Program-made: the position numbers and the translations under genes
Notes under the pieces: generated by a model
Database searches by the model: none
What the model saw: the letters and a program-made list of their open reading frames with translations, nothing else
Told to the model about the DNA's origin: nothing
Shown here: piece by piece, positions 2 through 61,121 of the stretch
How the letters are laid out: each line of letters starts with the position of its first letter
Position numbering within the stretch: the first letter of the stretch is position 1
Assembly (NCBI GenBank): GCA_016872515.1
Contig: VGZR01000001.1
Span: 80,475-144,474, forward strand
Length of the DNA: 64,000 nucleotides
Reading direction: 5' to 3'
Source of the DNA: SAR202 cluster bacterium
GTDB lineage: Bacteria; Chloroflexota; Dehalococcoidia; Lucifugimonadales; VGZR01

Positions 2-1936
2 GCGGGAGCCATCCTGGGCTACCTCGCCGAGAAGCAGAAGACGGCCCTCGGCCAGGTCGCCTCCCTGCGCACCTACTCGACCGCCTCGTACATGACCCTT
101 GACCCGCAGACGCGCCGCAACTTGGAGCTGTTCCAGGGAGGCCGCTGGGGGGACGCCAAGGCGTCGCTGCTGTCCGTGCTCGACCACACCCGCACCTCCA
201 TGGGCGGGCGGCTGCTGCGGACGTGGCTCGGCCAGCCGCTGCTCGACATCGCAAGACTGACCCGGCGGCAGGACGCGGTCGAGTGGTGCCACCGGAGCAC
301 GCTCCGGCGCGGGCGCGTGGTGCAGGAGATGCAGCAGGTGGCCGACCTGGAGCGGCTAGTCAACCGCGTGCGCGGCTTCACCGCCACGCCGCGCGACCTC
401 GTCTCGCTGGCGAACGGCCTGGAGGCCGCCCCGCGCATCAAGGCCATCCTGTCCGAGGGCGAGGATGCTCTCAAGGTCGCCCATCTCGCCGGGGAGATGC
501 GGTCCCATGGCGAGGTTGTGCAGCTCGTCAAGACCGCCATCGTGGACGACCCGCCGGCCACCACCGCGGACGGCGGGGCGATCCGCAGGGGCTTCTCGCA
601 CGAGCTCGACGCCATGCGCGACGCCTCCCGCGACGCCCAGGACTACATCGCCGGGCTGGAGGCTTGCGAGCGGGAGGCCACCGGCATCAAGTCGCTCAAG
701 GTCGGCTATAACAAAGTTTTCGGCTACTACATCGAGGTCACCAAGCCTCACATGGCCCAGGTGCCGCCACACTACATCCGGCGGCAGACGCTGGTGGGCG
801 GCGAGCGGTACATCACGCCGGAGATGAAGGAGTACGAGTCGCGTGTCCTGACGGCGCAGGAACGGATGGCCGAGTTGGAGGCGTCGCTGTTCCGGCAGGT
901 GTGCCAACAGGTCGGTAACGAGGCCCCGGCGGTGCTGCGGACCGCTGCGGCCATCGCCGAGGTGGACGCGCTGGCCTCGCTGGGCGAGGTGGCCTCCCAT
1001 CACGGCTACGTGCGGCCCGCGCTGGACGAGGGCGATGCCATCGCCATCAAGCAGGGGCGCCATCCGGTCGTCGAGCGGATGCTGCCTTCGGGGAGCTTCG
1101 TCCCCAACGACGCGCGGCTGTCGAACCGCGACGGCCAGTTCGTTATCCTCACCGGCCCCAATATGGCGGGCAAGTCAACCTTCATCCGCCAGGTCGCTCT
1201 TATCGTACTCATGGCCCAGGTGGGCAGTTTCGTCCCCGCCGAGTCGGCGCACATCGGCCTGGTGGACCGTATCTTCACCCGCGTCGGGCTGCAGGACGAC
1301 CTGGCCGTGGGCCAGTCCACCTTCATGGTCGAGATGGTCGAAACTGCGGCCATCCTGAACCACGCGACGCCGCACTCCCTCATCGTGCTGGACGAGATCG
1401 GGCGCGGCACCAGCACGTACGACGGCCTGGCAATCGCCCGCGCGACCGCCGAGCACATCCACAACCACCCCCGCCTCGGCTGCAAGACCCTGTTCGCCAC
1501 CCACTACCACGAGCTGACGCGGCTGGCCGACGTACTGCCCCGCGTGCGGAACTGGAGCGTGGCGGTGGCCGAGGACAAGGGCGAGGTCGTGTTCCTGCGT
1601 CGCATCGTGCCCGGCGGCGCCGACCGCAGCTACGGCGTCCACGTCGCCCGTCTGGCCGGGCTGCCCCAGAGCGTCATCCACCGCGCCTGGGAGGTCTTGG
1701 CCGAGTTGGAGAACGGCGCCCGCCAGACCCCAAACCCTAAACCCCAACCCCCAGAGTCGAGGGGAAGGGGTGTGGGATTCGGGGGCCAGTCCCCGCCTCC
1801 CGACCAGCTGCCCCTGCTGCCCATCACGCACGCCGTCGTTGAGGAGCTGCTGTCGCTCGACGTCGCCGACATGACCCCCCTGGAGGCCATCACCAAGCTC
1901 TACGAGCTCCAGGAGAAGGCAAAAGGGGAGGGGTGA
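2..1936 (+). CDS. mutS: DNA mismatch repair protein MutS (C-terminal ~644 codons; 5' end outside window)
   Basis: ORF 92..1936 stays open in the same frame back to nt 2 (AGAILGYLAEKQKTALGQV...). MutS hallmarks are present: LTGPNMAGKSTFIRQ (Walker A), VLDEIGRGTSTYDG, FATHYHELT. Stop TGA is at 1934-1936. Confidence 0.95.
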   Translation, partial: AGAILGYLAEKQKTALGQVASLRTYSTASYMTLDPQTRRNLELFQGGRWGDAKASLLSVLDHTRTSMGGRLLRTWLGQPLLDIARLTRRQDAVEWCHRSTLRRGRVVQEMQQVADLERLVNRVRGFTATPRDLVSLANGLEAAPRIKAILSEGEDALKVAHLAGEMRSHGEVVQLVKTAIVDDPPATTADGGAIRRGFSHELDAMRDASRDAQDYIAGLEACEREATGIKSLKVGYNKVFGYYIEVTKPHMAQVPPHYIRRQTLVGGERYITPEMKEYESRVLTAQERMAELEASLFRQVCQQVGNEAPAVLRTAAAIAEVDALASLGEVASHHGYVRPALDEGDAIAIKQGRHPVVERMLPSGSFVPNDARLSNRDGQFVILTGPNMAGKSTFIRQVALIVLMAQVGSFVPAESAHIGLVDRIFTRVGLQDDLAVGQSTFMVEMVETAAILNHATPHSLIVLDEIGRGTSTYDGLAIARATAEHIHNHPRLGCKTLFATHYHELTRLADVLPRVRNWSVAVAEDKGEVVFLRRIVPGGADRSYGVHVARLAGLPQSVIHRAWEVLAELENGARQTPNPKPQPPESRGRGVGFGGQSPPPDQLPLLPITHAVVEELLSLDVADMTPLEAITKLYELQEKAKGEG

Positions 1937-2500
1937 AGCGTCGGCAAGGGAAGCGCTCACCCCTACCTCAATCCTCCCCCCTCGAGGGGGGAGGACGGGT
2001 CCGGCCGCATCCGTGTTTTCGCTCACGGGCTTGGAAAGTTCGGGCGCGCGCGCCTCTCCCCCACCGGGGGAGACCACAGAGGGGGTGGATTCTCGTGACG
2101 GTTCTAATGACGGTTCAAGATACGTCGGTGGCGACGTGGAGACCATGTCGGCAGCGACAAGGGCAGGCGTCGCAGGCGACGTGGCAGCTGCATCGGAGAC
2201 GGCGTGGGGGATAGCGTCGTTTTCGACATCCTCTCCCATCCTCAGGAGGTAGATGTTCGATGTCCTCCGGCCAACGCCGTCATAGCGGGGCCGGATCTCG
2301 ATCAGGCCCTTCTCGGCGAGGATGGCGGTGTGTTTCTGGACATTTCTGGGAATCACGCTGCACAGCTCGGCGAGGCGGGCGTTGCTGGGCCAGCAGACGC
2401 CGTTCTTGTCGGCGTGGTCGGCCAGGATGATCAGCGCCGGCTTCACCGGCCCAGCCAGGCCGCGCTGCTTCACAGCCCACTCCATCGCCTTCACCGACAT
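1175..2500 (-). CDS. Phage/plasmid-type winged-helix (HTH_36-like) DNA-binding protein; no stop codon until 1175, so the tail runs antisense through mutS
   Basis: The N-terminus AMEWAVKQRGLAGPVKPALIILADHADKNGVCWPSNARLAELCSVIPRNVQKHTAILAEKGLIEIRPRY is followed by an EPSLEPS tail typical of this family. Start taken at ATG 2498-2500, preceded by GGGGGTGG. The true C-terminus is uncertain. Confidence 0.6.
   Translation of the reverse strand: MSVKAMEWAVKQRGLAGPVKPALIILADHADKNGVCWPSNARLAELCSVIPRNVQKHTAILAEKGLIEIRPRYDGVGRRTSNIYLLRMGEDVENDAIPHAVSDAAATSPATPALVAADMVSTSPPTYLEPSLEPSRESTPSVVSPGGGEARAPELSKPVSENTDAAGPVLPPRGGRIEVGVSASLADASPLPFCLLLELVELGDGLQGGHVGDVERQQLLNDGVRDGQQGQLVGRRGLAPESHTPSPRLWGLGFRVWGLAGAVLQLGQDLPGAVDDALGQPGQTGDVDAVAAVGAAGHDATQEHDLALVLGHRHAPVPHAGQYVGQPRQLVVVGGEQGLAAEAGVVVDVLGGRAGDCQAVVRAGAAPDLVQHDEGVRRRVVQDGRSFDHLDHEGGLAHGQVVLQPDAGEDTVHQADVRRLGGDETAHLGHEYDKSDLADEG
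1930..1995. repeat. Type-1 mosaic hairpin repeat, copy A (GGGGTGA...TCACCCC stem plus Y hairpin)
   Basis: GGGGTGA 1930-1936 (contains the mutS stop) pairs with TCACCCC 1957-1963. Y hairpin CCTCCCCCC-TCGA-GGGGGGAGG lies at 1973-1994. The same modules occur at 4708-4854, 5702-5823 and 55345-55475. Confidence 0.8.
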
Positions 2501-2631
2501 GCTGCGCCACCCCCTTTTTATCAGCGTAGGACGCATGTGCGGCTTTGACAACCCACCCCAAAACTGAGGTGGGTTCGCGCCGTTTGCACAACTCCAAAAG
2601 GCTGGTACACTCGCTCCCTCGGACGGCCAGC

Positions 2632-2907
2632 ATGGGAGGCGGCATGGAAGCGACGCTCAAGGTCTATGGTGCTATGACGTGCGGGGATACCCTGCGGGTG
2701 CGCCACTTTCTCAGGCTGCGCCGCATCCCCTACGAGTGGTTCGGCGTGGACGAAGACCCGGAGGCGCTCAAGCTCATCAAGCGCGTCAACAACGGCCAGA
2801 GGACGCCGCCGACCATCTTCCTCAAAGACGGGACCATCCTGTTCGAGCCCTCGGACGAGGAGCTGGCGCGCCGCTTGGGGCTCAAGCCCACGATGAGACT
2901 GGCATAG
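2632..2907 (+). CDS. Glutaredoxin/NrdH-like small thioredoxin-fold protein, monothiol variant
   Basis: ORF 2545..2907. KVYGAMTCGDTLRVRHFLRLRRIPYEWFGVDEDPEA...TPPTIFLKDGTILFEPS fits a glutaredoxin-like fold. The active-site position reads CGDT, with the second Cys replaced by Thr. Start placed at ATG 2632 (MGGGMEATLKVYG); upstream ORF codons look non-coding. Confidence 0.65.
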   Translation: MGGGMEATLKVYGAMTCGDTLRVRHFLRLRRIPYEWFGVDEDPEALKLIKRVNNGQRTPPTIFLKDGTILFEPSDEELARRLGLKPTMRLA

Positions 2908-4702: not shown

Positions 4703-5689
4703 ATGCTCTTCCTTCCCCCTCGAAGGGGGAAGGAAGACGCGGCGGCTTGGCCGGCGCGTAGGGATAGGGGTGAAGCATCAACGAAGAGAGGCATCACCCC
4801 TAGCCTTCAACGAGCTCAGGACAGGCTTTCGATCCTCCCCCTCAACGGGGAGGAGGAATGTCATGAGTCTTGCCCGCTGGCTGCCCTGGCTGCGGCGGTG
4901 CTGGCCGTCGCAGGCGTCATCATCCGGCAGGTGGGTGTGCTCGACCGCTACTTCATCTTCTTTCCCGAGCGCGAGGTTGCGGAAACCCCCTCAGACCGCG
5001 GCCTCGCCTTCGAGGATGTCTCCTTCACCGCCTCGGACGGGACGCGGCTGCATGGCTGGTACGTCCACGGCACGTCGGACGTGACCTGGCTGTGGTTCCA
5101 CGGCAATGCGGGCAACATCGCCGACTGGCTCGACGCGCTGGCCGCGCTGCACCGCAACCTCGGCGTCGCCATCTTCATCTTCGACTACCGCGGCTACGGC
5201 AAGAGCGAGGGCAGGCCGTCGGAGCGGGGGATGTACGTCGACGGCGAGGCGGCGCTGGTGTACCTGCGCTCGCGGCCCGATGTGAACGCGGACAAGGTTG
5301 TGCTCTACGGCCGGTCGCTGGGCTGCGCCGTCGCTGTCGAGATGGCCAGCCGCCACGGCGCGTATGCCCTAGTGCTGGAGTCGCCGTTCACGTCCATCAG
5401 GGCGATGGCGCGGCAGACGCTCCCCGTCCTTCCGGCGTGGCTGCTGGTGAAGAGCCGTTTCGTCTCGCTGTCGAAGATGTGTGGCATCACGGCGCCGTTG
5501 CTGGTCGTTCATCCGGAGAACGACGAGGTCGTGCCCATCGCGATGGGGTGGGAGGTGCATGAGGCGGCGGGAGGGCCGAGGCGCTTCTTCGTCGCCGAGG
5601 GCGCGCTGCACAACGACCAGCACCTGGCCGGCGGCGACCCCTACTTCGCGGCGCTGCGCGACTTCCTGGCGTCGGTTGGCGAGGGGTAA
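4703..5689 (+). CDS. Alpha/beta-fold hydrolase (serine hydrolase); start codon uncertain
   Basis: Has the HGNAGN oxyanion region, nucleophile elbow GRSLGC, and later ENDEVV and ALHND (Asp/His). The first ~50 codons of the ORF run through repeat copy B, so the true start is probably internal (e.g. GTG 4898). The only SD-preceded ATG (4863) is in another frame. Confidence 0.8.
   Translation: MLFLPPRRGKEDAAAWPARRDRGEASTKRGITPSLQRAQDRLSILPLNGEEECHESCPLAALAAAVLAVAGVIIRQVGVLDRYFIFFPEREVAETPSDRGLAFEDVSFTASDGTRLHGWYVHGTSDVTWLWFHGNAGNIADWLDALAALHRNLGVAIFIFDYRGYGKSEGRPSERGMYVDGEAALVYLRSRPDVNADKVVLYGRSLGCAVAVEMASRHGAYALVLESPFTSIRAMARQTLPVLPAWLLVKSRFVSLSKMCGITAPLLVVHPENDEVVPIAMGWEVHEAAGGPRRFFVAEGALHNDQHLAGGDPYFAALRDFLASVGEG
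4708..4854. repeat. Type-1 mosaic hairpin repeat, copy B (X hairpin, 40-nt linker, long stem, Y hairpin)
   Basis: X is a 12-bp stem CTTCCTTCCCCC/GGGGGAAGGAAG at 4708-4736. The linker is 4737-4776. GGGGTGA 4767-4773 pairs with TCACCCC 4794-4800. Y stem TCCTCCCC/GGGGAGGA lies at 4833-4854. Confidence 0.85.
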
Positions 5690-5701
5690 GGGGCCATACG
5701 T

Positions 5702-5823
5702 TCCTTCCCCCTTTGAGGGGGGAAGGAGTACGCGGCGGCCTGGCCGGCGCGTAGGGATGGGGGTGAAGCGTCTGTAGGGGGATATGTCACCCCTACCTCA
5801 ATCCTCCCCCTCAAGGGGGAGGA
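5702..5823. repeat. Type-1 mosaic hairpin repeat, copy C
   Basis: X hairpin is at 5702-5727. Linker 5730-5769 differs from 4737-4776 at 2 of 40 nt. GGGGTGA...TCACCCC spans 5760-5793. Y hairpin TCCTCCCCC-TCAA-GGGGGAGGA lies at 5802-5823, about 10 nt past the rpsT stop. Confidence 0.85.
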
Positions 5824-13946: not shown

Positions 13947-14099
13947 AGTCGTGTCCTTGTCTTTTTGATTGAAAACGTCACCGTTTCTGAACTAGTACGG
14001 TATTTGGACATCGAAGAGTGATTACTGTACCATCCGCGCCACGCCGGGGGGAAGGGGCAGGTCCCTTCCCTAACGTAAGTCTTTGTAGGAGGCAAGGCT

Positions 14100-15811: not shown

Positions 15812-15849
15812 CCGTTGTGCCCGACCAGCGAATGGGTCGGGCACAACGG
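15812..15849. terminator. Bidirectional hairpin between convergent SBP and GuaB3-like genes
   Basis: Perfect 15-bp stem CCGTTGTGCCCGACC / GGTCGGGCACAACGG with an 8-nt loop. No U-tract. Confidence 0.55.
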
Positions 15850-18350: not shown

Positions 18351-18399
18351 CCTCTCCCCTTGCGGGAGAGGCCTATGATTTGCCTCAGGCGAATCATAG
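18351..18399. repeat. Type-2 double-hairpin element, copy upstream of queG
   Basis: Hairpin 1 is CCTCTCCC-CTTGC-GGGAGAGG (18351-18371). Hairpin 2 is a 12-bp stem CTATGATTTGCC/GGCGAATCATAG containing one T-G wobble (18373-18399). Confidence 0.65.
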
Positions 18400-20482: not shown

Positions 20483-20566
20483 GGGGAAGTGGCGGAATGG
20501 CAGACGCGCAAGACTTAGGATCTTGTGCCGTAAGGCGTGGGAGTTCAAATCTCCCCTTCCCCACCA
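20483..20566 (+). tRNA. tRNA-Leu (anticodon UAG), type II with long variable arm, CCA encoded
   Basis: Hand-folded. Acceptor GGGGAAG/CTTCCCC, D stem GCG/CGC, anticodon stem CAAGA/TCTTG with loop CTTAGGA, variable arm GCC-GTAA-GGC, T arm GGGAG-TTCAAAT-CTCCC, discriminator A plus CCA. Confidence 0.93.
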
Positions 20567-24362: not shown

Positions 24363-24393
24363 ACAGAGGCCGCCCCGGTCGGGCGGCCTCTGT
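24363..24393. terminator. Bidirectional hairpin between convergent ogt and the osmC-like gene
   Basis: 13-bp perfect stem ACAGAGGCCGCCC / GGGCGGCCTCTGT with loop CGGTC. Confidence 0.55.
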
Positions 24394-27894: not shown

Positions 27895-28162
27895 GGCCGT
27901 GCTAGGCGGGGAGATAGCGGTGCCCTGTACTCGCAATCCGCTTTAGCGGGGCTGAACTCCCTCCAGAGGTCCGCCTTCGGAGGCCTCTTTCCTCGGATGT
28001 AGGTGTTGAGAGTTGGGTCCTACGCGGCGGAACCCTGTGAACCCCGTCAGGTCCGGAAGGAAGCAGCGGTAAGCAGTGTGTTTCGGGTGCCGTGGGTTCG
28101 CCTGACTTGAGCCGAATCTTAGGGAATGTTTTCGGATAGGATCGAAGCGGGGGTGCACGGCC
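27895..28162 (+). ncRNA. ffs: Signal recognition particle RNA, long Bacillus-type form with Alu domain (~268 nt)
   Basis: Domain IV core GTCAGGTCCGGAAGGAAGCAGC lies at 28046-28067. The 5' part GCTAGGCGGGGAGATAGCGGTGCCCTGTACTCGCAATCCGCTTTAGCGGGGCTGAA closely parallels B. subtilis scRNA as I remember it. Terminal helix GGCCGTGC (27895-27902) pairs perfectly with GCACGGCC (28155-28162). Confidence 0.9.
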
Positions 28163-34101: not shown

Positions 34102-34863
34102 CTACTGAATGGTGAGACCGCTGTCTATGGAGAGGCTGGCACCGTTGACATAAGAGGCCTTGCCGGAGCATAGCCAGACGACGGCGCGGGCGACTTCGTC
34201 CGGCTTGGCCTCGCGGCCCAGCGGGTGTCCCTGGCGGACCTGCCGGCGCTTCGGCGTATCCACCCCGTACAGCCGGTCGAACATGGGGGTCGCCACACCA
34301 CCGGGGCAGACCGCGTTGACGCGGATGCCTTCCTTGGCGTACTCCAGCGCCGCCGCCTTCGTCAGCCCCAGCACGCCGTGCTTGCTTGCCGTGTAGGCCG
34401 TGAACGTCGGCGTGCCGATGAGGCCGTTGGCGGAGGCGACGTTGACGATGCTCCCGCCGCCCGTTTTGAGCATAGCCAGGATCTCCTGCTTCGTGCACAA
34501 CCACGCGCCGGTGAGGTTGACAGCCATCACCGTGTCCCAGTCCGCCTCGGAAACCTCGTGAATGAGCCTGCGCTCCCCCTCGAAGCCTGCGTTGTTACAG
34601 GCGCAGTCCAGCCTCCCGTACGCCTTCACGGCGCGGTCCACCAGCGCCGCCACCTGGTCAGGCTGAGAGACGTCGCACCGGACGAACGTCGCCTCGCCGC
34701 CGGCCTTCCGGATGGCGGCCACCGTCTGGTTGCCCGCCTTCTCGCCCCGTGCCGCTACGACGACCTTCGCTCCCTCGCGGGCCATCGCCTCCGCCGTCGC
34801 GCGGCCGATGCCCATGCTCCCGCCCGTTACGATAGCGACCTTGTTTTGGAGGAGTCCCGTCAC
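34102..34863 (-). CDS. Short-chain dehydrogenase/reductase, tandem paralogue 1 (last gene of the operon)
   Basis: GTG start at 34863 (VTGLLQNKVAIVTGGSMGIGRA). NNAG present, catalytic S...YTASK, VNAVCPG. Closest to paralogue 2. Confidence 0.88.
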   Translation of the reverse strand: MTGLLQNKVAIVTGGSMGIGRATAEAMAREGAKVVVAARGEKAGNQTVAAIRKAGGEATFVRCDVSQPDQVAALVDRAVKAYGRLDCACNNAGFEGERRLIHEVSEADWDTVMAVNLTGAWLCTKQEILAMLKTGGGSIVNVASANGLIGTPTFTAYTASKHGVLGLTKAAALEYAKEGIRVNAVCPGGVATPMFDRLYGVDTPKRRQVRQGHPLGREAKPDEVARAVVWLCSGKASYVNGASLSIDSGLTIQ

Positions 34864-34877
34864 TGTTCCCTGCCTGC

Positions 34878-35639
34878 CTACCGCGCGACGGCTGCGCCGT
34901 CGAGAAGAAGGGCACTCCCGTTCACGTATGACGACCTGGCAGAGCACAGCCAGACCACCGGCTCGGCGACCTCCTCCGGCGTTCCTTCCCGGCCGATGGG
35001 GCGTCGTGCGTTGATCGCCTCCCTCGACAGGGGGCTAGCGGCCACGATTCGGTTCAGCATCTCCGTCGTCGTCCCCGCCGGGCACACAGCATTGATGCGG
35101 ATGCCGTCCTTGGCATACTCCAGCGCCGCCGCCTTGGTCAGCCCGATGACTGCCCACTTGCTCGCGGCGTACGCAGCATAGAAAGAAGACCCGACGACTC
35201 CAGCATTCGAGGACATATTGACGATGACCCCGCCGCCCTGTTTGACCATCTGGGGCAACTCGTACTTCATGCTGAGCCAGACGCCTTTGAGGTTCACGTC
35301 CATGACCTCGTCCCACACCTCGACGGGCAGGTCCGCGATACGGAACCTGGATCCTTCGAAGCCAGCGTTGTTGAAGGCGCAGTCGAGCCTGCCATAAGTC
35401 TCGACGGTCGCCCTGACCAGCGCCTCTATCTCTTGCGGCCTGGTCACGTCACAGCGCACGAACACCGCCTCGCCGCCCTTCTTTCGGATTGCCTCAACCG
35501 TCTCGTGCCCGGCCTCTTCCCCGCGCGCCGAGACGACCACTTTCGCACCTTCGCGTGCCATCGCCAGCGCGGTCGCGCGTCCGAGGCCCTTGTTGCCGCC
35601 GGTGATGAGAGCGACTTTGTCCTGGAGGAGTCCTACCAT
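34878..35639 (-). CDS. Short-chain dehydrogenase/reductase, tandem paralogue 2
   Basis: 253 aa. ITGGNKGLGRA, NNAG, YAASK, INAVCPAG. Confidence 0.9.
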   Translation of the reverse strand: MVGLLQDKVALITGGNKGLGRATALAMAREGAKVVVSARGEEAGHETVEAIRKKGGEAVFVRCDVTRPQEIEALVRATVETYGRLDCAFNNAGFEGSRFRIADLPVEVWDEVMDVNLKGVWLSMKYELPQMVKQGGGVIVNMSSNAGVVGSSFYAAYAASKWAVIGLTKAAALEYAKDGIRINAVCPAGTTTEMLNRIVAASPLSREAINARRPIGREGTPEEVAEPVVWLCSARSSYVNGSALLLDGAAVAR

Positions 35640-35645
35640 CCGGTA

Positions 35646-36407
35646 CTATTGCGCGGTGAACGTGCCGTCCACCACCATCGGATGGCCGTGCACGAACGAC
35701 GCCGCATCGCTGCACAGCCAGACCACCGCCTCCGCGATCTCCTCCGGCTGCCCGTAGCGGCCCAGTGGCACCGTCTTTAGCATCTCCTCTTTGCTTCCTG
35801 GGAACTGGTCCCAGTACTTCTGGTTCAGTGGCGTCTCGAAGATGCCTGGGCAGACCGCGTTGACACGGATGCCCTTGCGGGCGTACTCCAGCGCCGCCGT
35901 CTTCGTCAGCCCCAGGACGCCGTGCTTGCTCGCCACATAGGCCGACAGCCCGCCCATGGCCACCAGCCCCACGATGGAGGCCGTGTTCACGATGCAGCCG
36001 CCGCCCTGCCTGAGCATCTGTGGGATTTCGTACTTCATCCCCAGCCACACGCTCTTGAGGTTGATGGCGATGGTCCGGTCGAACTCATCCTCGGTGTACT
36101 CGTCGGTGGTCTTCCCGAGGCCGCCGATGCCGGCGTTGTTGAAGGCGCAGTCCAGCCGCTTGTACTTCTTCACCGTCGCCTTGACCATGGCCTCCACCTC
36201 AGCCGCCTTCGAGACGTCCGTCTTGATGGCGATGGCGTCGCCGCCCGTATCCTCGATCAGGTGCGCCGTCTGCTCGGCGGTCTGCAGGTTGATGTCCGCA
36301 CACACCACCTTCGCGCCGTCGCGGGCGAACAGCAGCGACGTCGCGCGGCCGAACCCCGACCCCGCGCCGGTCACAAGGGCTACTTTCCCTTCGAACTCTC
36401 CTGCCAT
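35646..36407 (-). CDS. Short-chain dehydrogenase/reductase, tandem paralogue 3
   Basis: 253 aa. VTGAGSGFGRA, NNAG, YVASKHG, VNAVCPG, WLCSDAASFVHGH. Closest to paralogue 4. Confidence 0.9.
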   Translation of the reverse strand: MAGEFEGKVALVTGAGSGFGRATSLLFARDGAKVVCADINLQTAEQTAHLIEDTGGDAIAIKTDVSKAAEVEAMVKATVKKYKRLDCAFNNAGIGGLGKTTDEYTEDEFDRTIAINLKSVWLGMKYEIPQMLRQGGGCIVNTASIVGLVAMGGLSAYVASKHGVLGLTKTAALEYARKGIRVNAVCPGIFETPLNQKYWDQFPGSKEEMLKTVPLGRYGQPEEIAEAVVWLCSDAASFVHGHPMVVDGTFTAQ

Positions 36408-36445
36408 GAGACCCTCCTCAGAATCTGGCTTTCTATTTCAAGCTG

Positions 36446-37216
36446 TTACTGCGCAGTCCAGGCACCGTCAACGACCATCGTGTGGCCGTGGACGAACGAG
36501 GCCGCGTCCGAGCACAGCCAGACCACCACCTCGGCGATCTCCGGTGTCTGCCCGTAGCGGCCAAGGGGCGTCCGAGCGATGTTGCGCGCCACCAAGTCCG
36601 GGTTGATCTTCGCATAACGTATGTTCATCGGCGTCTCGATGACGCCGGGGCAGATGGCGTTGACGCGCACGCCGTGTTTCGCGTACTCCAGCGATGCCGT
36701 CCGCGTCAGCCCGACGACGCCGTGCTTGCTCGCCACGTAGGCCGCCGACCCTTCGATGCCCGTCACCCCCATGATGGACGAGGTGTTCACGATGCAACCG
36801 CCGCCGTTCTTGAGCATCTGCGGTATTTCGTACTTGATGCACAGCCAGACGCCCTTGAGGTTGATGGCGATAGTGCGGTCGAAGTCCTCCTCCTTGTGGA
36901 GGTCTATAGGGGTGCCCATGCTACCCACGCCGGCGTTGTTGAAGGCGCAGTCCAGCCGACGGTACTTCTTGACGGCTGCACCGACTGCCGTCTCGACCTC
37001 GGCCGCTTTCGACACGTCGGCTTTCACCGCGACGGCCTGGCCGCCACCCTTCTCGATAGTGTTTGCAGTCTCCTCCGCCGAGGCGGCGTTGAGGTCCACC
37101 ACCACAACCTTCGCACCCTCGCGGGCGAACGCCAGCGCCGTCGTCTGGCCGATGCCGGAGCCGCCTCCGGTCACCAGCGCGACCCTCCCCTCGAACTCCC
37201 TCATAGTCTTCGCCAT
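36446..37216 (-). CDS. Short-chain dehydrogenase/reductase, tandem paralogue 4
   Basis: Start at ATG 37216 (MAKTMREFEGRVALVTGGGSGIG); the ORF-track extension to 37351 looks non-coding. NNAG, YVASKHG, VNAICPG. Confidence 0.88.
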   Translation of the reverse strand: MAKTMREFEGRVALVTGGGSGIGQTTALAFAREGAKVVVVDLNAASAEETANTIEKGGGQAVAVKADVSKAAEVETAVGAAVKKYRRLDCAFNNAGVGSMGTPIDLHKEEDFDRTIAINLKGVWLCIKYEIPQMLKNGGGCIVNTSSIMGVTGIEGSAAYVASKHGVVGLTRTASLEYAKHGVRVNAICPGVIETPMNIRYAKINPDLVARNIARTPLGRYGQTPEIAEVVVWLCSDAASFVHGHTMVVDGAWTAQ

Positions 37217-37259
37217 CTGTCCTCTTGCCTTCCCCAACAGCAATCGTATCGCCCTATCG

Positions 37260-38300
37260 TCAGGGCACCGTGAGCACCAGCTTGCCGAAGAAGTCCAGCT
37301 TCTCCATCTCCTCATGGGCCTTGCGCGTCTCTTCCAGCGGATAAGTTGCATGGACGACGCCCTTGATGACGCCCTTACCTGCTACATCCACGATCTGCCG
37401 CAGGTCTCCATTCCGACCCATAAAAACGCCGAAGACTGTCTGGTGGCGTAAGAACATCAATCCCATCTGCAACTCGACCTTATACCCGCTCGTGACGCCG
37501 CAGATGCCATAGCGCCCGCCGACCGCCAGCGATGCTGTGGCATAGGGCCATGCGTCGGCGCCCACGTGGTCCACCACCACCTCCACCCCCCGCCCGCCCG
37601 TCAGCGACTTCACTCGCTCGGCCACATCCTCCGTCTTGTAGTTCACCACCTCGTCCGCGCCCAGTTCCTTCGCCCGCCTTGCCTTCTCGTCGGAGCTCGT
37701 GGTGGCGATGACCCGGGCGCCGATCACTCTCTTCGCCACCTGGATGGCTGCCGTGCCCACGCCGCTTGAGGCCGACAGGATGAGCGCCGTCTCCCACGGC
37801 TTGAGGGCCGCACGTCGCAGGAGGATGGACCAGCATGGCAGGAACACCGTGGGGAGCGATGCGGCCTGGACATACGACAGCGACGCGGGGAGCGGCATCG
37901 CGTTGACGGCAGGCGCCTTCGCGTACTCGGCGTACCCCCCGCTCTTCGTGGAGCCAATCATCCCCGGCGCCACGCACAATTCCGTCTCGCCGGAAACACA
38001 CGCCCGGCATTGACCGCATGTGATTCGTGGATTCACCACCACCCGGTCGCCAGGCTTCAGCGAGGTGACCGCGCTACCCACTTCGGCCACGTCGCCCGCG
38101 ATGTCGCCGCCCAGGATATGTGGCCCCGCTGTCTTGATGCGCGTCCCGCGGACGCCCGCGCGGGTGAACAGGTCCAGCCGGTTGAGGGCGCAGGCCCGCA
38201 CCCGTATCTTCACATCGTTGGGGCCGATGGCTGGCTCTGGCAGGTCGCCGTAGGTAAGCACCTCCGGCCCACCGTGCTGCGTGAGATAGACTGCCTTCAC
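37260..38300 (-). CDS. Zinc-type medium-chain alcohol dehydrogenase / quinone-oxidoreductase family protein
   Basis: 346 aa. GTG start overlaps the LLM stop (GTGA). GGDIAGDV, structural-Zn loop CGQCRACVSGETELC, and a Rossmann segment SASSGVGTAAIQ. Confidence 0.88.
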   Translation of the reverse strand: MKAVYLTQHGGPEVLTYGDLPEPAIGPNDVKIRVRACALNRLDLFTRAGVRGTRIKTAGPHILGGDIAGDVAEVGSAVTSLKPGDRVVVNPRITCGQCRACVSGETELCVAPGMIGSTKSGGYAEYAKAPAVNAMPLPASLSYVQAASLPTVFLPCWSILLRRAALKPWETALILSASSGVGTAAIQVAKRVIGARVIATTSSDEKARRAKELGADEVVNYKTEDVAERVKSLTGGRGVEVVVDHVGADAWPYATASLAVGGRYGICGVTSGYKVELQMGLMFLRHQTVFGVFMGRNGDLRQIVDVAGKGVIKGVVHATYPLEETRKAHEEMEKLDFFGKLVLTVP

Positions 38301-40405: not shown

Positions 40406-40434
40406 AGGGGCCCCTGGTCAACCCAGGGGCCCCT
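40406..40434. terminator. Bidirectional hairpin between convergent tatA and tatC
   Basis: 12-bp perfect stem AGGGGCCCCTGG / CCAGGGGCCCCT with loop TCAAC, followed on the plus strand by CGATTTCTGTG. Confidence 0.65.
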
Positions 40435-54517: not shown

Positions 54518-55278
54518 ATGAAGCTGCGCATCTTGGGCATCAATAACATGGAGAGCAGGGACACCCGTCTGTCGGGCTACCTGGTGGACGACGTGCTGGC
54601 CCTCGACGCAGGCTCGCTGGCCCGCTCGCTGCGGTTCGACGAGCTCCGCCGCGTCGAGGCCATCCTGCTCTCCCACCGCCACTACGACCACATCCGCGAC
54701 ATACCCGCGCTGCGCTACAGCCTCCGTGATCCCGGCCGCATCGTGGACGTCTTCGGCATCAAGGACACGGCGGATCAGGTGCGCGCCCGCTTCTTCGCGC
54801 CCCCGGCCTGGGACGGCGTGGCGGAGGGCGTGGAGGGCCCGCTGCGCCTCCACGAGGCCGAGCCGTACGAGCCCTTCCAGGTGGCAGGCCACACGGTCAC
54901 TCCGCTGCTCGTGCGCCACAGCGTCCCCGCCACCGGCTACCTCGTCTCCGATGGCCGCGCCAGCCTCTTTTGCACCGATGACACGGGCAGGAGTCTAGAG
55001 GAGGTCTGGAAACGCGCCGCCCCGGACGTGCTCCTCACCGAGGTCGCCCTCGGCGATGCGATGTGGGAGAGGGCGCAGGAGGTCGGCCATATGACGCCAT
55101 CCTTGCTCGCCGAGGAGATGGCTGTCTTCAAGTCCATCCACGGACACTTCCCCGCGTCATCGTCACCCACATGAACCCGCCGTGGGAGCAGGCCATTCGC
55201 GTCGAACTGCCGCCCATCGCCGGTAAGCTGGGCGCTGACATCACCATCGCTGTCCCCGACCAGGTCTTCAGCCTGTGA
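54518..55278 (+). pseudogene. MBL-fold metallo-hydrolase with a 1-nt frameshift near 55140-55153
   Basis: MKLRILG...LSHRHYDHIRD (metal motif) reads in one frame up to ...KSIHGH and then hits a stop at 55172-55174. The expected C-terminus PRVIVTHMNPPWEQAIRVEL...VFSL continues in the adjacent frame (ORF 55063..55278). A C4 run at 55150-55153 is a likely indel site. Confidence 0.75.
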
Positions 55279-55344
55279 ATGCGCCACCAAAGTTCCCGGT
55301 GGACGCGAACCCCAGTCACGGCAAGCTATTGCCCAAAAGAGCTT

Positions 55345-55475
55345 TCACACCCACCTCCATCCTCCCCCCTCAAGGGGGAGGATGGAGAATGCATCAAGGC
55401 CGCGCGCCTTGTGCTCAAGGGCGGCGTGGGGCAACCCTTCTCCCTCGAGGGGGGAAGGCGCAGGATGGGGGTGAG
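55345..55475. repeat. Type-1 mosaic hairpin repeat, copy D (modules permuted)
   Basis: Order is TCACACCC 55345-52, Y hairpin TCCTCCCCC(C)-TCAA-GGGGGAGGA 55360-82, degenerate X hairpin 55436-58, then GGGGGTGAGA 55466-75. Confidence 0.75.
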
Positions 55476-57481: not shown

Positions 57482-57515
57482 TGGGGGACTTCTTCTGGTC
57501 AGAAGAAGTCCCCCA
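57482..57515 (-). terminator. dnaK operon terminator hairpin
   Basis: Perfect 16-bp palindrome TGGGGGACTTCTTCTG-GT-CAGAAGAAGTCCCCCA starting 9 nt after the dnaK stop. The FRG gene start lies only 14 nt beyond it. Confidence 0.7.
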
Positions 57516-61050: not shown

Positions 61051-61080
61051 CCACCGCCCGTTCCTGGTAAAGGACAACGA

Positions 61081-61121
61081 AGCGCGAGGGCCCCGGCAGT
61101 GCCGGGGCCCTCGCGCTTTTT
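61081..61121 (+). terminator. Intrinsic terminator after the small Zn-ribbon gene
   Basis: 17-bp perfect stem AGCGCGAGGGCCCCGGC-AGT-GCCGGGGCCCTCGCGCT followed by TTTTT. Confidence 0.85.

Follow-up and report, generated by a model that had tools for sequence, protein, structure and literature searches.

The window analysed here is a 64,000-nt stretch of contig VGZR01000001.1 (positions 80,475 to 144,474) from a SAR202 cluster bacterium, in which an alpha/beta-hydrolase gene is bracketed by two hairpin-rich intergenic repeats. The question raised by this locus is what kind of element these repeats are. They are probably lineage-specific, non-coding and non-autonomous intergenic repeats, built from class II potential intrastrand triplex motifs with the grammar of the BoxC (TM_ECO) elements of E. 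coli. The evidence that carries this reading is the anatomy of the units, their excess over chance, the covariation of three strands and the presence or absence of units between relatives. The family is new in sequence, a Chloroflexota counterpart of BoxC, and not a new kind of system. Several metagenome assemblies from fresh water, among them JGI 3300020200 and ENA ERZ27247963 (on a 236-kb contig), contain the same window sequence. The nearest named homologues belong to metagenome-assembled genomes labelled ‘SAR202 cluster bacterium’, Dehalococcoidia and Chloroflexi.

Anatomy of the repeat units

The repeats are designated copies A (4707-4857), B (5702-5823), C (1930-1995) and D (55348-55474), with a separate unit, Z, at 2055-2085. 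These hairpin-rich repeats beside the hydrolase gene are genuine and stand far above chance. Hairpins that pair a pyrimidine 5′ arm with a purine 3′ arm occur 12 times in the window, compared with 0.71 on average in 100 shuffles that preserve dinucleotides. The RNA folding z-scores of copies A and B are -6.1 and -5.0, respectively.

The initial annotation had divided the copies into an X hairpin, a 40-nt linker, a long stem and a Y hairpin. On re-reading the window, every module of all four copies was found at the coordinates given. The linker differs at 2 of 40 positions between 4737-4776 and 5730-5769, as had been stated, and matches twice in the window and never in shuffles. The long-stem pattern GGGGTGA-N20-TCACCCC has three matches (1930-1963, 4767-4800 and 5760-5793), with 0.00 expected. 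The Y hairpin is located at 1972-1995, 4833-4854, 5802-5823 and 55355-55387. The X hairpin is likewise present, with a perfect 14-bp stem at 4707-4737 and a 10-bp stem at 5702-5727. The further copies C and D exist, although D departs from the collinear order of A and B, with a Y-type unit first and, after 48 nt, a divergent X-type unit. Two units, at 2055-2085 and 55436-55471, are additions to the earlier list. Compensatory change beside GGGGTGA/TCACCCC, which had also been proposed, is ruled out: the 5′ side reads AAGC in all three copies and the 3′ side alone varies. The description of a non-coding intergenic mosaic repeat family, neither a CRISPR array nor an insertion sequence (IS), is retained. 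Both module content and spacing are irregular, which does not correspond to a CRISPR array.

The division into four modules misses the organising principle. A simpler description is a pyrimidine (PY) arm, a purine (PU) arm and a mirror G/T strand. The basic unit consists of a PY arm, a loop, a PU arm, a second loop and a reverse-Hoogsteen (G/T) strand which mirrors the PU arm and ends in GGGGTGA. Each third strand is followed by a conserved TGA, or by TGGA in the Z unit. The long stem, S, is explained by this arrangement, because the units face each other on opposite strands and S is the pairing between the GGGGTGA/TCACCCC tails of two inverted units. Copies A and B are inverted doublets, each joining one X-type unit on the plus strand with one Y-type unit on the minus strand. 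Copy C is a Y unit plus the tail of a partner, fused to the 3′ end of mutS. In copy D, one Y unit and one X unit are arranged divergently. Z represents a third unit type. All nine units are intergenic.

The ITxF definition places PY, PU and reverse-Hoogsteen blocks on one strand, with stems of 6-15 nt, at most one mismatch, loops of 1-6 nt and the allowed triads G*G-C and A/T*A-T (PMC4666352). The scan was re-implemented with stems of 8 or more, no more than one mismatched triad, a second loop of 1-6 nt and a first loop of up to 8 nt. By these settings the window contains five class II motifs (2055-2085 and 55436-55471 on the plus strand; 55348-55382, 5789-5823 and 1960-1995 on the minus strand), with first loops of 2-6 nt, and the 100 dinucleotide shuffles contain none. 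The X units of copies A and B (X_A and X_B) carry the third strand GGAT(A/G)GGGG, which fits the triad rule only across a 28-nt second loop. This loop consists of a hairpin, L, with 3-4 nt on each side, and L (CGCGGCGGC-YTG-GCCGGCGCG) is the core of the 40-nt linker. A pyrimidine-motif (class IV) triplex with TCACCCCTACCTC as a plus-strand third strand was also tried by hand; it fits poorly, and the class II motif on the minus strand fits. A small ORF in the elements was rejected as well, as copy B reads ATG GGG GTG AAG CGT CTG TAG and copy A has ATA in place of the ATG. The coordinates of all modules are collected in Table 1.

Table 1. Positions, strands and properties of the repeat modules and units in the window.
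Feature	Position	Strand	Remarks
Copy C, long stem-loop S, GGGGTGAAGCG...CGCTCACCCC	1930-1963	+	mutS stop TGA (1934-1936) inside 5′ arm
Copy C, Y-type unit, TCCTCCCCC-loop-GGGGGAGGA-TTG-AGGTAGGGG(TGA)	1960-1995	-	8/9 triads; Y hairpin 1972-1995
Z-type unit, TCTCCCCC-ACC-GGGGGAGA-CCAC-AGAGGGGG, then TGGA	2055-2085	+	8/8 triads
Copy A, X hairpin, PY arm TCTTCCTTCCCCCT, PU arm AGGGGGAAGGAAGA	4707-4737	+	14-bp perfect stem
Copy A, L hairpin, CGCGGCGGC-TTG-GCCGGCGCG	4738-4758	+	within second loop; core of 40-nt linker
Copy A, mirror third strand GGATAGGGG plus TGA tail	4762-4773	+	8/9 triads with X; 28-nt second loop
Copy A, long stem S, GGGGTGA...TCACCCC	4767-4800	+	paired tails of two inverted units
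Copy A, Y hairpin, TCCTCCCC-CTCAAC-GGGGAGGA	4833-4857	+	PU arm extends to GGAGGAGGA
Copy B, X hairpin, TCCTTCCCCC-TTTGAG-GGGGGAAGGA	5702-5727	+	10-bp stem
Copy B, L hairpin, CGCGGCGGC-CTG-GCCGGCGCG	5731-5751	+	
Copy B, mirror third strand GGATGGGGG plus TGA	5755-5766	+	9/9 triads with X; 28-nt second loop
Copy B, long stem S	5760-5793	+	
Copy B, Y-type unit, TCCTCCCCC(T)-loop-(A)GGGGGAGGA-TTG-AGGTAGGGG(T)	5789-5823	-	about 10 nt from rpsT stop
100-nt segment X + L + S, absent in L063	5702-5801	.	bounded by direct repeats TCCT(T)CCCCC
Copy D, unit D1, Y type, TCCTCCCCC-loop-GGGGGAGGA-TGG-AGGTGGGTG(TGA)	55348-55387	-	hairpin extends to 14 bp (55355-55387)
Copy D, unit D2, X type, short second loop, CCTTCTCCC-TCGAG-GGGGGAAGG-CGCA-GGATGGGGG-TGA	55436-55474	+	ATG 55465 in third strand; 36-mer is CCTTCTCCCTCGAGGGGGGAAGGCGCAGGATGGGGG

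The unit types X, Y and Z differ by coordinated changes across all three strands. Read as triads from the outer end, X-type units run CGG CGG TAA TAT, Y-type units TAA CGG CGG TAT and Z-type units TAA CGG TAA, followed in each case by a run of CGG. Wherever the PU arm has an A, the PY arm has a T and the mirrored position of the third strand has an A or a T. The triads fit at 8/8, 9/9 or 8/9 positions in the units of the window, and at 7/9 in the copy of X_A found in a close relative (locus L063). Slippage or template switching at hairpins yields direct or inverted repeats, not mirror repeats. Because ordinary copying errors would give repeats of the former kinds, the covariation is comparative evidence that argues for a constraint on the mirror strand. 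Together with the clean polymorphism of gain and loss described below, it is useful for the question of whether triplex motifs are under selection.

By analogy with the E. coli elements (PMC4666352), folding in vivo, slippage and the mode of spread may be pictured as follows. Replication or transcription would expose the DNA as a single strand, in which the units would fold into a hairpin or triplex. These structures would promote slippage and recombination between similar arms, leading to fast gain and loss of units and of flanking DNA. The family would be maintained, as selfish or nearly neutral DNA, in the small number of gaps between genes that a compact genome offers. Strong hairpins also come to lie in the 3′ untranslated regions (UTRs) of upstream genes. 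A bolder version of this model supposes real selection in vivo for an intrastrand DNA triple helix. The doublets would then be a self-propagating, triplex-based analogue of REPINs for an unknown enzyme, or else programmed pause or recombination sites of the cell which donate ribosome-binding sites (RBS) and start codons. This version is considered improbable.

Several points weigh against the triplex-motif reading. The second loop of X_A, X_B and the Y unit of copy A (Y_A) must be 26-28 nt long, beyond the published 1-6 nt, and the third strand of Y_A carries an extra base. The Y-type units share one recurrent mismatched triad. The X PU arm also fits the Y third strand in a shifted register (8/8), which makes the X/Y covariation less discriminating, and G-rich low complexity inflates mirror matches. 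A stable triplex in vivo has gone undetected even for TM_ECO of E. coli (PMC4666352). The 100-nt difference at site B, described below, is unpolarised between gain and loss. In genome and metagenome contig collections lacking the source organism, the long-stem pattern GGGGTGAAGC-N-TCACCCCTA gave only single chance matches in unrelated organisms. The concatenated open-frame translations of the elements found nothing in protein space at E <= 1, and the 57-aa in-frame translation of copy A had 0 matches among 1.84 billion representative proteins. A family dispersed genome-wide would be an extrapolation from about 78 kb of sequence.

No further unit was found in the 13.9 kb flanking the window (6.2 kb on the left and 7.7 kb on the right). 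In independent short-read assemblies, five complete contigs have a terminus no more than about 20 nt from a unit (window positions 2106, twice, 4702, 4846 and 5705). Contig ends of this kind are typical at multi-copy or hypervariable sequence. The breaks hint at multi-copy status and are suggestive only. In practical terms, the units break short-read assemblies.

Relation to known repeat systems

BoxC, TM_ECO and PIT (potential intrastrand triplex) are names given to the same class of element, studied earlier by Hoyne, Maher and colleagues as cited in PMC4666352. The TM_ECO motif, the old BoxC, is CCCTCNCCC-N3-6-GGGNGAGGG-N3-GGGNGAGGG, a PY arm, a PU arm and a mirror G/T third strand (Holder et al. 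2015, PMC4666352). TM_ECO elements are always intergenic, their inverted doublets always pair two subtypes, deletions within doublets leave a hairpin and their loci vary more between strains (PMC4666352). The units of the window share the order of PY arm, loop, PU arm, short loop and mirror G/T strand on one strand, with stems of 8-10 nt. They also share the intergenic location, the subtypes, the inverted doublets of two subtypes, the hairpin left by partial deletion and the variability between strains. As with TM_ECO, there is neither an association with a transposase nor a terminator signature.

The TM_ECO/BoxC consensus does not occur in the window units, so that the class is shared and the sequence family is different. 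The arms and third strands here are CCTTCCCCC/GGGGGAAGG/GGATGGGGG, TCCTCCCCC/GGGGGAGGA/AGGTAGGGG and TCTCCCCC/GGGGGAGA/AGAGGGGG, in contrast to CCCTCNCCC/GGGNGAGGG/GGGNGAGGG in E. coli. Additional differences from TM_ECO are the conserved TGA after the third strand (TGGA in Z) and the 21-nt GC hairpin in the second loop of the composite copies. The host is an uncultured SAR202-like member of the Chloroflexota and not a proteobacterium. The BoxC-type grammar, with its two-subtype doublets and hairpin-leaving deletions, is thus extended to an uncultured lineage of freshwater Chloroflexota.

The E. coli motif itself was located in 5409 of 5426 complete genomes, at a median of 16 places per genome. 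BoxC-type units are also enriched among loci of unrelated bacteria that were fetched by chance (L009, L025, L027, L045 and L048). In L048, two units of different type form a convergent doublet with GGGGTGA...TCACCCC between two PY-PU hairpins, as in copies A and B. The doublet architecture appears from these loci to recur across phyla. The positions of the BoxC-type motifs beside GGGGTGA...TCACCCC are 60-146 in L048, 401-434 in L009, 5749-5885 in L025, 4009-4040 in L027 and 1830-1865 in L045.

An analogy with REP and BIME elements had been drawn in the initial annotation and is judged reasonable. REPs, BIMEs and REPINs are short, GC-rich palindromic intergenic repeats which form mosaic clusters with linkers and inverted doublets, lie downstream of genes or between convergent genes, vary between strains and carry GTAG near one hairpin (PMC3733652, PMC3116915, PMC3333891). 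All of these features have a likeness in the window family. A stronger form of the analogy is that the repeats are of REP/BIME or terminal inverted repeat (TIR) type and are moved in trans by a Y1 transposase (RAYT/TIRYT, IS200/IS605-like), with S as a GTAG-tagged REP and the doublets as REPIN-like structures. GTAG does lie just 5′ of S in copies A and B (GCGTAGGGAT...) and within the Y-type third strand (AGGTAGGGGTGA). TIRs that flank TIRYT genes have a reported motif, GGGGWSAS, with which the tail GGGGTGA(C/G) agrees in three units. GTAG REPs are known from Chloroflexi, where they lie for the most part in gaps whose flanking genes are unidirectional or convergent, often as inverted dimers, a siting similar to that seen here. 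The presence or absence of units between relatives would also be expected, as would the GTAGGGG...CCCCTAC palindrome found at site B of relatives, although this palindrome is single-copy within their 15-kb loci.

Nevertheless, no Y1 or other transposase domain, and hence no RAYT, was found in the approximately 45 window ORFs scanned with Pfam. A REP is an imperfect palindrome of 20-40 nt whose one end carries a conserved GTAG (or GTGG) tag. In the window, GTAG is missing 5′ of S in copy C, has no fixed link to, or distance from, the X, Y and Z hairpins, and does not appear to be a consistent unpaired tag. The homopyrimidine and homopurine arms with a mirror strand are lacking in REPs, and a third strand which mirrors the PU arm in place of complementing it, together with its covariation, is left unexplained by such movement. 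Transposition by a Y1 enzyme is unlikely, though compatible with the triplex-motif explanation.

A classical MITE, a miniature transposable element with inverted repeats, would be a deletion derivative of an IS, with the 5′ arm of X and the 3′ arm of Y as TIRs and with target-site duplications. The outer arms are complementary, those of copy B pair in the minimum-energy fold and the element length of 120-150 nt is suitable. The 100-nt difference at site B is flanked by direct repeats of 9-10 nt, which could be a target duplication. These direct repeats, the only ones present, are the hairpin arms themselves and are imperfect, and copies A, C and D have no flanking duplication. The module content and order vary (C, D and Z), unlike the expectation for cut-and-paste movement, and the scanned window ORFs include neither a parent IS nor a transposase. 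A MITE origin is highly improbable.

The Y hairpin of copy B had been described as terminator-like from its position about 10 nt after the rpsT stop. The position is correct, but a scan for terminators with a U-tract on both strands gave none at any X or Y hairpin, and the designation is not supported. The only match, a weak one at 1995-2014, lies just past copy C. In common with intrinsic terminators and 3′-UTR stabilisers, the units are strong GC hairpins some 10 nt after stop codons, including those of convergent genes. They differ from intrinsic terminators in the missing U-tract, in the tandem arrangement of the hairpins and in their occurrence directly upstream of start codons as well. 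The elements match no Rfam family, as their best scores, 15-25 bits, fall short of thresholds of 37-100. Only two features of the window exceed an Rfam threshold, a bacterial large signal recognition particle RNA at 27897-28160 (196 bits) and one tRNA at 20483-20563.

Selection at the RNA level is an alternative. The hairpins in 3′ UTRs would terminate or protect mRNA, and those upstream of genes would sequester the Shine-Dalgarno sequence and tune translation. All composite copies follow directly after a plus-strand gene in the same orientation, and their predicted folds are very stable, as the z-scores above indicate. Two stem mismatches, one in D2 and one in X_A of L063, place T opposite G; on the sense strand these become U-G pairs, which are tolerated. 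PU arms resembling GGAGG lie 5-6 nt before two start codons. Apart from the missing U-tract and Rfam match, double-sided compensatory changes are absent in S, and E. coli PIT elements showed neither promoter nor terminator activity (PMC4666352). The conserved mirror strand has no explanation in RNA. Its conservation points to the DNA level, because purine-motif triplexes do not form in RNA (PMC4666352). On balance, RNA-level selection as the main explanation is regarded as doubtful, including in the light of the relatives considered below.

Gain and loss among relatives

Orthologous loci were gathered by means of homologues of the hydrolase and of AcuC, and the relatives are identified here by their amino acid identities. 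In the closest of these, L063 (95%), copy A is kept at 94% nucleotide identity. Where L063 has one Y hairpin at site B, the window is longer by exactly 100 nucleotides, the segment 5702-5801 of Table 1.

In L067 (84%) and L064 (81%), site B holds an unrelated palindrome, GTAGG(G/A)GCGACCGGCCGGTCGCCCCTAC, at the hydrolase/rpsT junction (815-842 in L067 and 10865-10892 in L064). It is near-perfect, headed by GTAG and REP-like. The window's long stem S has a base similar to the ends of this palindrome, GTAGGG...CCCCTAC. Site A of L064 is a 25-nt spacer and site D of L068 (76%) is a 30-nt spacer. PY-PU hairpins of at least 8 bp are absent from L064, L065 and L066, and those of at least 7 bp from L067 and L068. 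No class II motif was found in any of these five loci. The closest intermediate relative, from sample ERZ1305449 (hydrolase homologue 87%, AcuC 92%), has a 112-nt spacer at site A. A look-up with rpsT for other variants of site B returned the same strain only.

For RNA-level selection, the exchange at the hydrolase/rpsT junction has two sides. The family stands where the relatives have a different palindromic hairpin, as if a hairpin were needed at this junction. Its function would nonetheless be dispensable, because the sites are empty in relatives of 76-84% identity. Sites A, B and D all differ between relatives, in a small sample with no control sites. In view of these comparisons the family of triplex-type motifs appears to be lineage-specific and unstable between close relatives.

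The units also adjoin small deletions, one of which causes a frameshift in a gene. Relative to L063, 31 nt have been lost between CTGGCTGCG direct repeats about 30 nt into the hydrolase gene, counted from ATG 4863, at around position 4893. The deletion shifts the hydrolase frame after codon 10 (window 4863-4990). This allele is present in every fetched contig of the strain, from several JGI, ENA and Logan samples.

The interval between mutS and the glutaredoxin gene (window 1937-2643, L063 1-2354, L064 5898-7111) differs in gene content in every relative. The window has a remnant with an HTH_36 domain, L063 an AAA/TOPRIM nuclease of the OLD family, the 87% relative a HEPN_Swt1 protein and L064 an NHL-repeat protein. 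This interval is a small variable islet, possibly of defence type, bordered by units C and Z. The HTH_36 ORF (E 4.9e-11; 1937-2497, minus strand) starts at 2497 and runs through Z and C into mutS in antisense, with a frame open to 1175. It looks like the truncated remnant of a phage- or plasmid-type gene. A shadow ORF on the plus strand was called by JGI instead.

Neighbouring genes and other features of the window

The housekeeping genes of the window include mutS, glutaredoxin, two D-glutamate-cyclase-like (GLUCM-like) genes, the alpha/beta hydrolase, rpsT, relA/spoT, hisS, lepA, lexA, tatC, fusA, acuC and dnaK. Copy A lies between a GLUCM-like gene (stop 4693) and the hydrolase gene, and copy B between the convergent hydrolase and rpsT genes. 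Copy C begins within the stop codon of mutS. Copy D lies between a metallo-beta-lactamase (MBL) fold gene and acuC.

The initial annotation had held that the elements carry no ORF and that the 3′ arm of Y in copy A forms a Shine-Dalgarno sequence before ATGs at 4858 and 4863. The first statement is correct biologically, but gene callers extend ORFs through copy A (a 328-aa hydrolase, in frame from ATG 4703) and through both D units at 55279-55464 (a 443-aa AcuC from ATG 55279). The units thus mislead gene callers into N-terminal extensions. The second statement stands for ATG 4863 and fails for ATG 4858, which opens an ORF of two codons. The PU arm of Y_A, GGAGGAGGA, ends 5 nt upstream of ATG 4863. 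This codon is the ancestral start of the hydrolase, because MSLARWLPW matches homologues that begin with MSLDRWLPWL, and the PU arm is therefore the Shine-Dalgarno sequence of the hydrolase. In its present state the gene may be a pseudogene, may start at GTG 4904 or may indeed use the upstream start.

A PU arm resembling a Shine-Dalgarno sequence also precedes the acuC start at 55465. Judged by its homologues, which are 375-381 aa long, acuC truly starts at ATG 55465, within the third strand of D2. The 92% relative shares the resulting AcuC N-terminus, MGVRRTLA, which relatives at 76% or less lack. Co-option of the units, in part read directly and in part reached by inference, comprises an RBS for the hydrolase (Y_A) and an RBS plus start codon for acuC (D2). 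Such effects on expression are real but look secondary.

The MBL-fold (Lactamase_B_2) gene at 54518-55278 appears split, as one ORF ends at 55174 and a second frame, from 55063 to 55278, has a stretch that resembles a C-terminus (VIVTHMNPPWE...). In L068 (76%) this gene is missing between a peptidase gene and acuC.

Two solitary hairpins lack a mirror strand and are ruled out as family members on this ground. The inverted hairpin at 14049-14070, reported in the initial annotation as X-like, is present as a purine-first stem (GGGAAGGG-N6-CCCTTCCC) 30 nt before the start of an SBP_bac_5 gene, and is kept apart as solitary. The other, at 18351-18371 (CCTCTCCC-CTTGC-GGGAGAGG), lies upstream of a queG-like gene and is directly followed by an 8-bp hairpin, CTATGATT...AATCATAG, which extends to 18398.

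Long perfect palindromes of unrelated sequence, with arms of 12-19 bp, occupy other intergenic gaps (61080-61118, 57482-57515, 15812-15849, 24363-24393 and 40406-40434). These are probably ordinary hairpins at transcript ends, which would mean that the genome uses hairpins from outside the family at the ends of genes. At 34279-37400, a sequence recurs four times in tandem about every 770-800 nt, at 60-80% identity, and the repeats include at least two minus-strand genes for short-chain dehydrogenases (adh_short_C2). This region is a tandem array of short-chain dehydrogenase paralogues.

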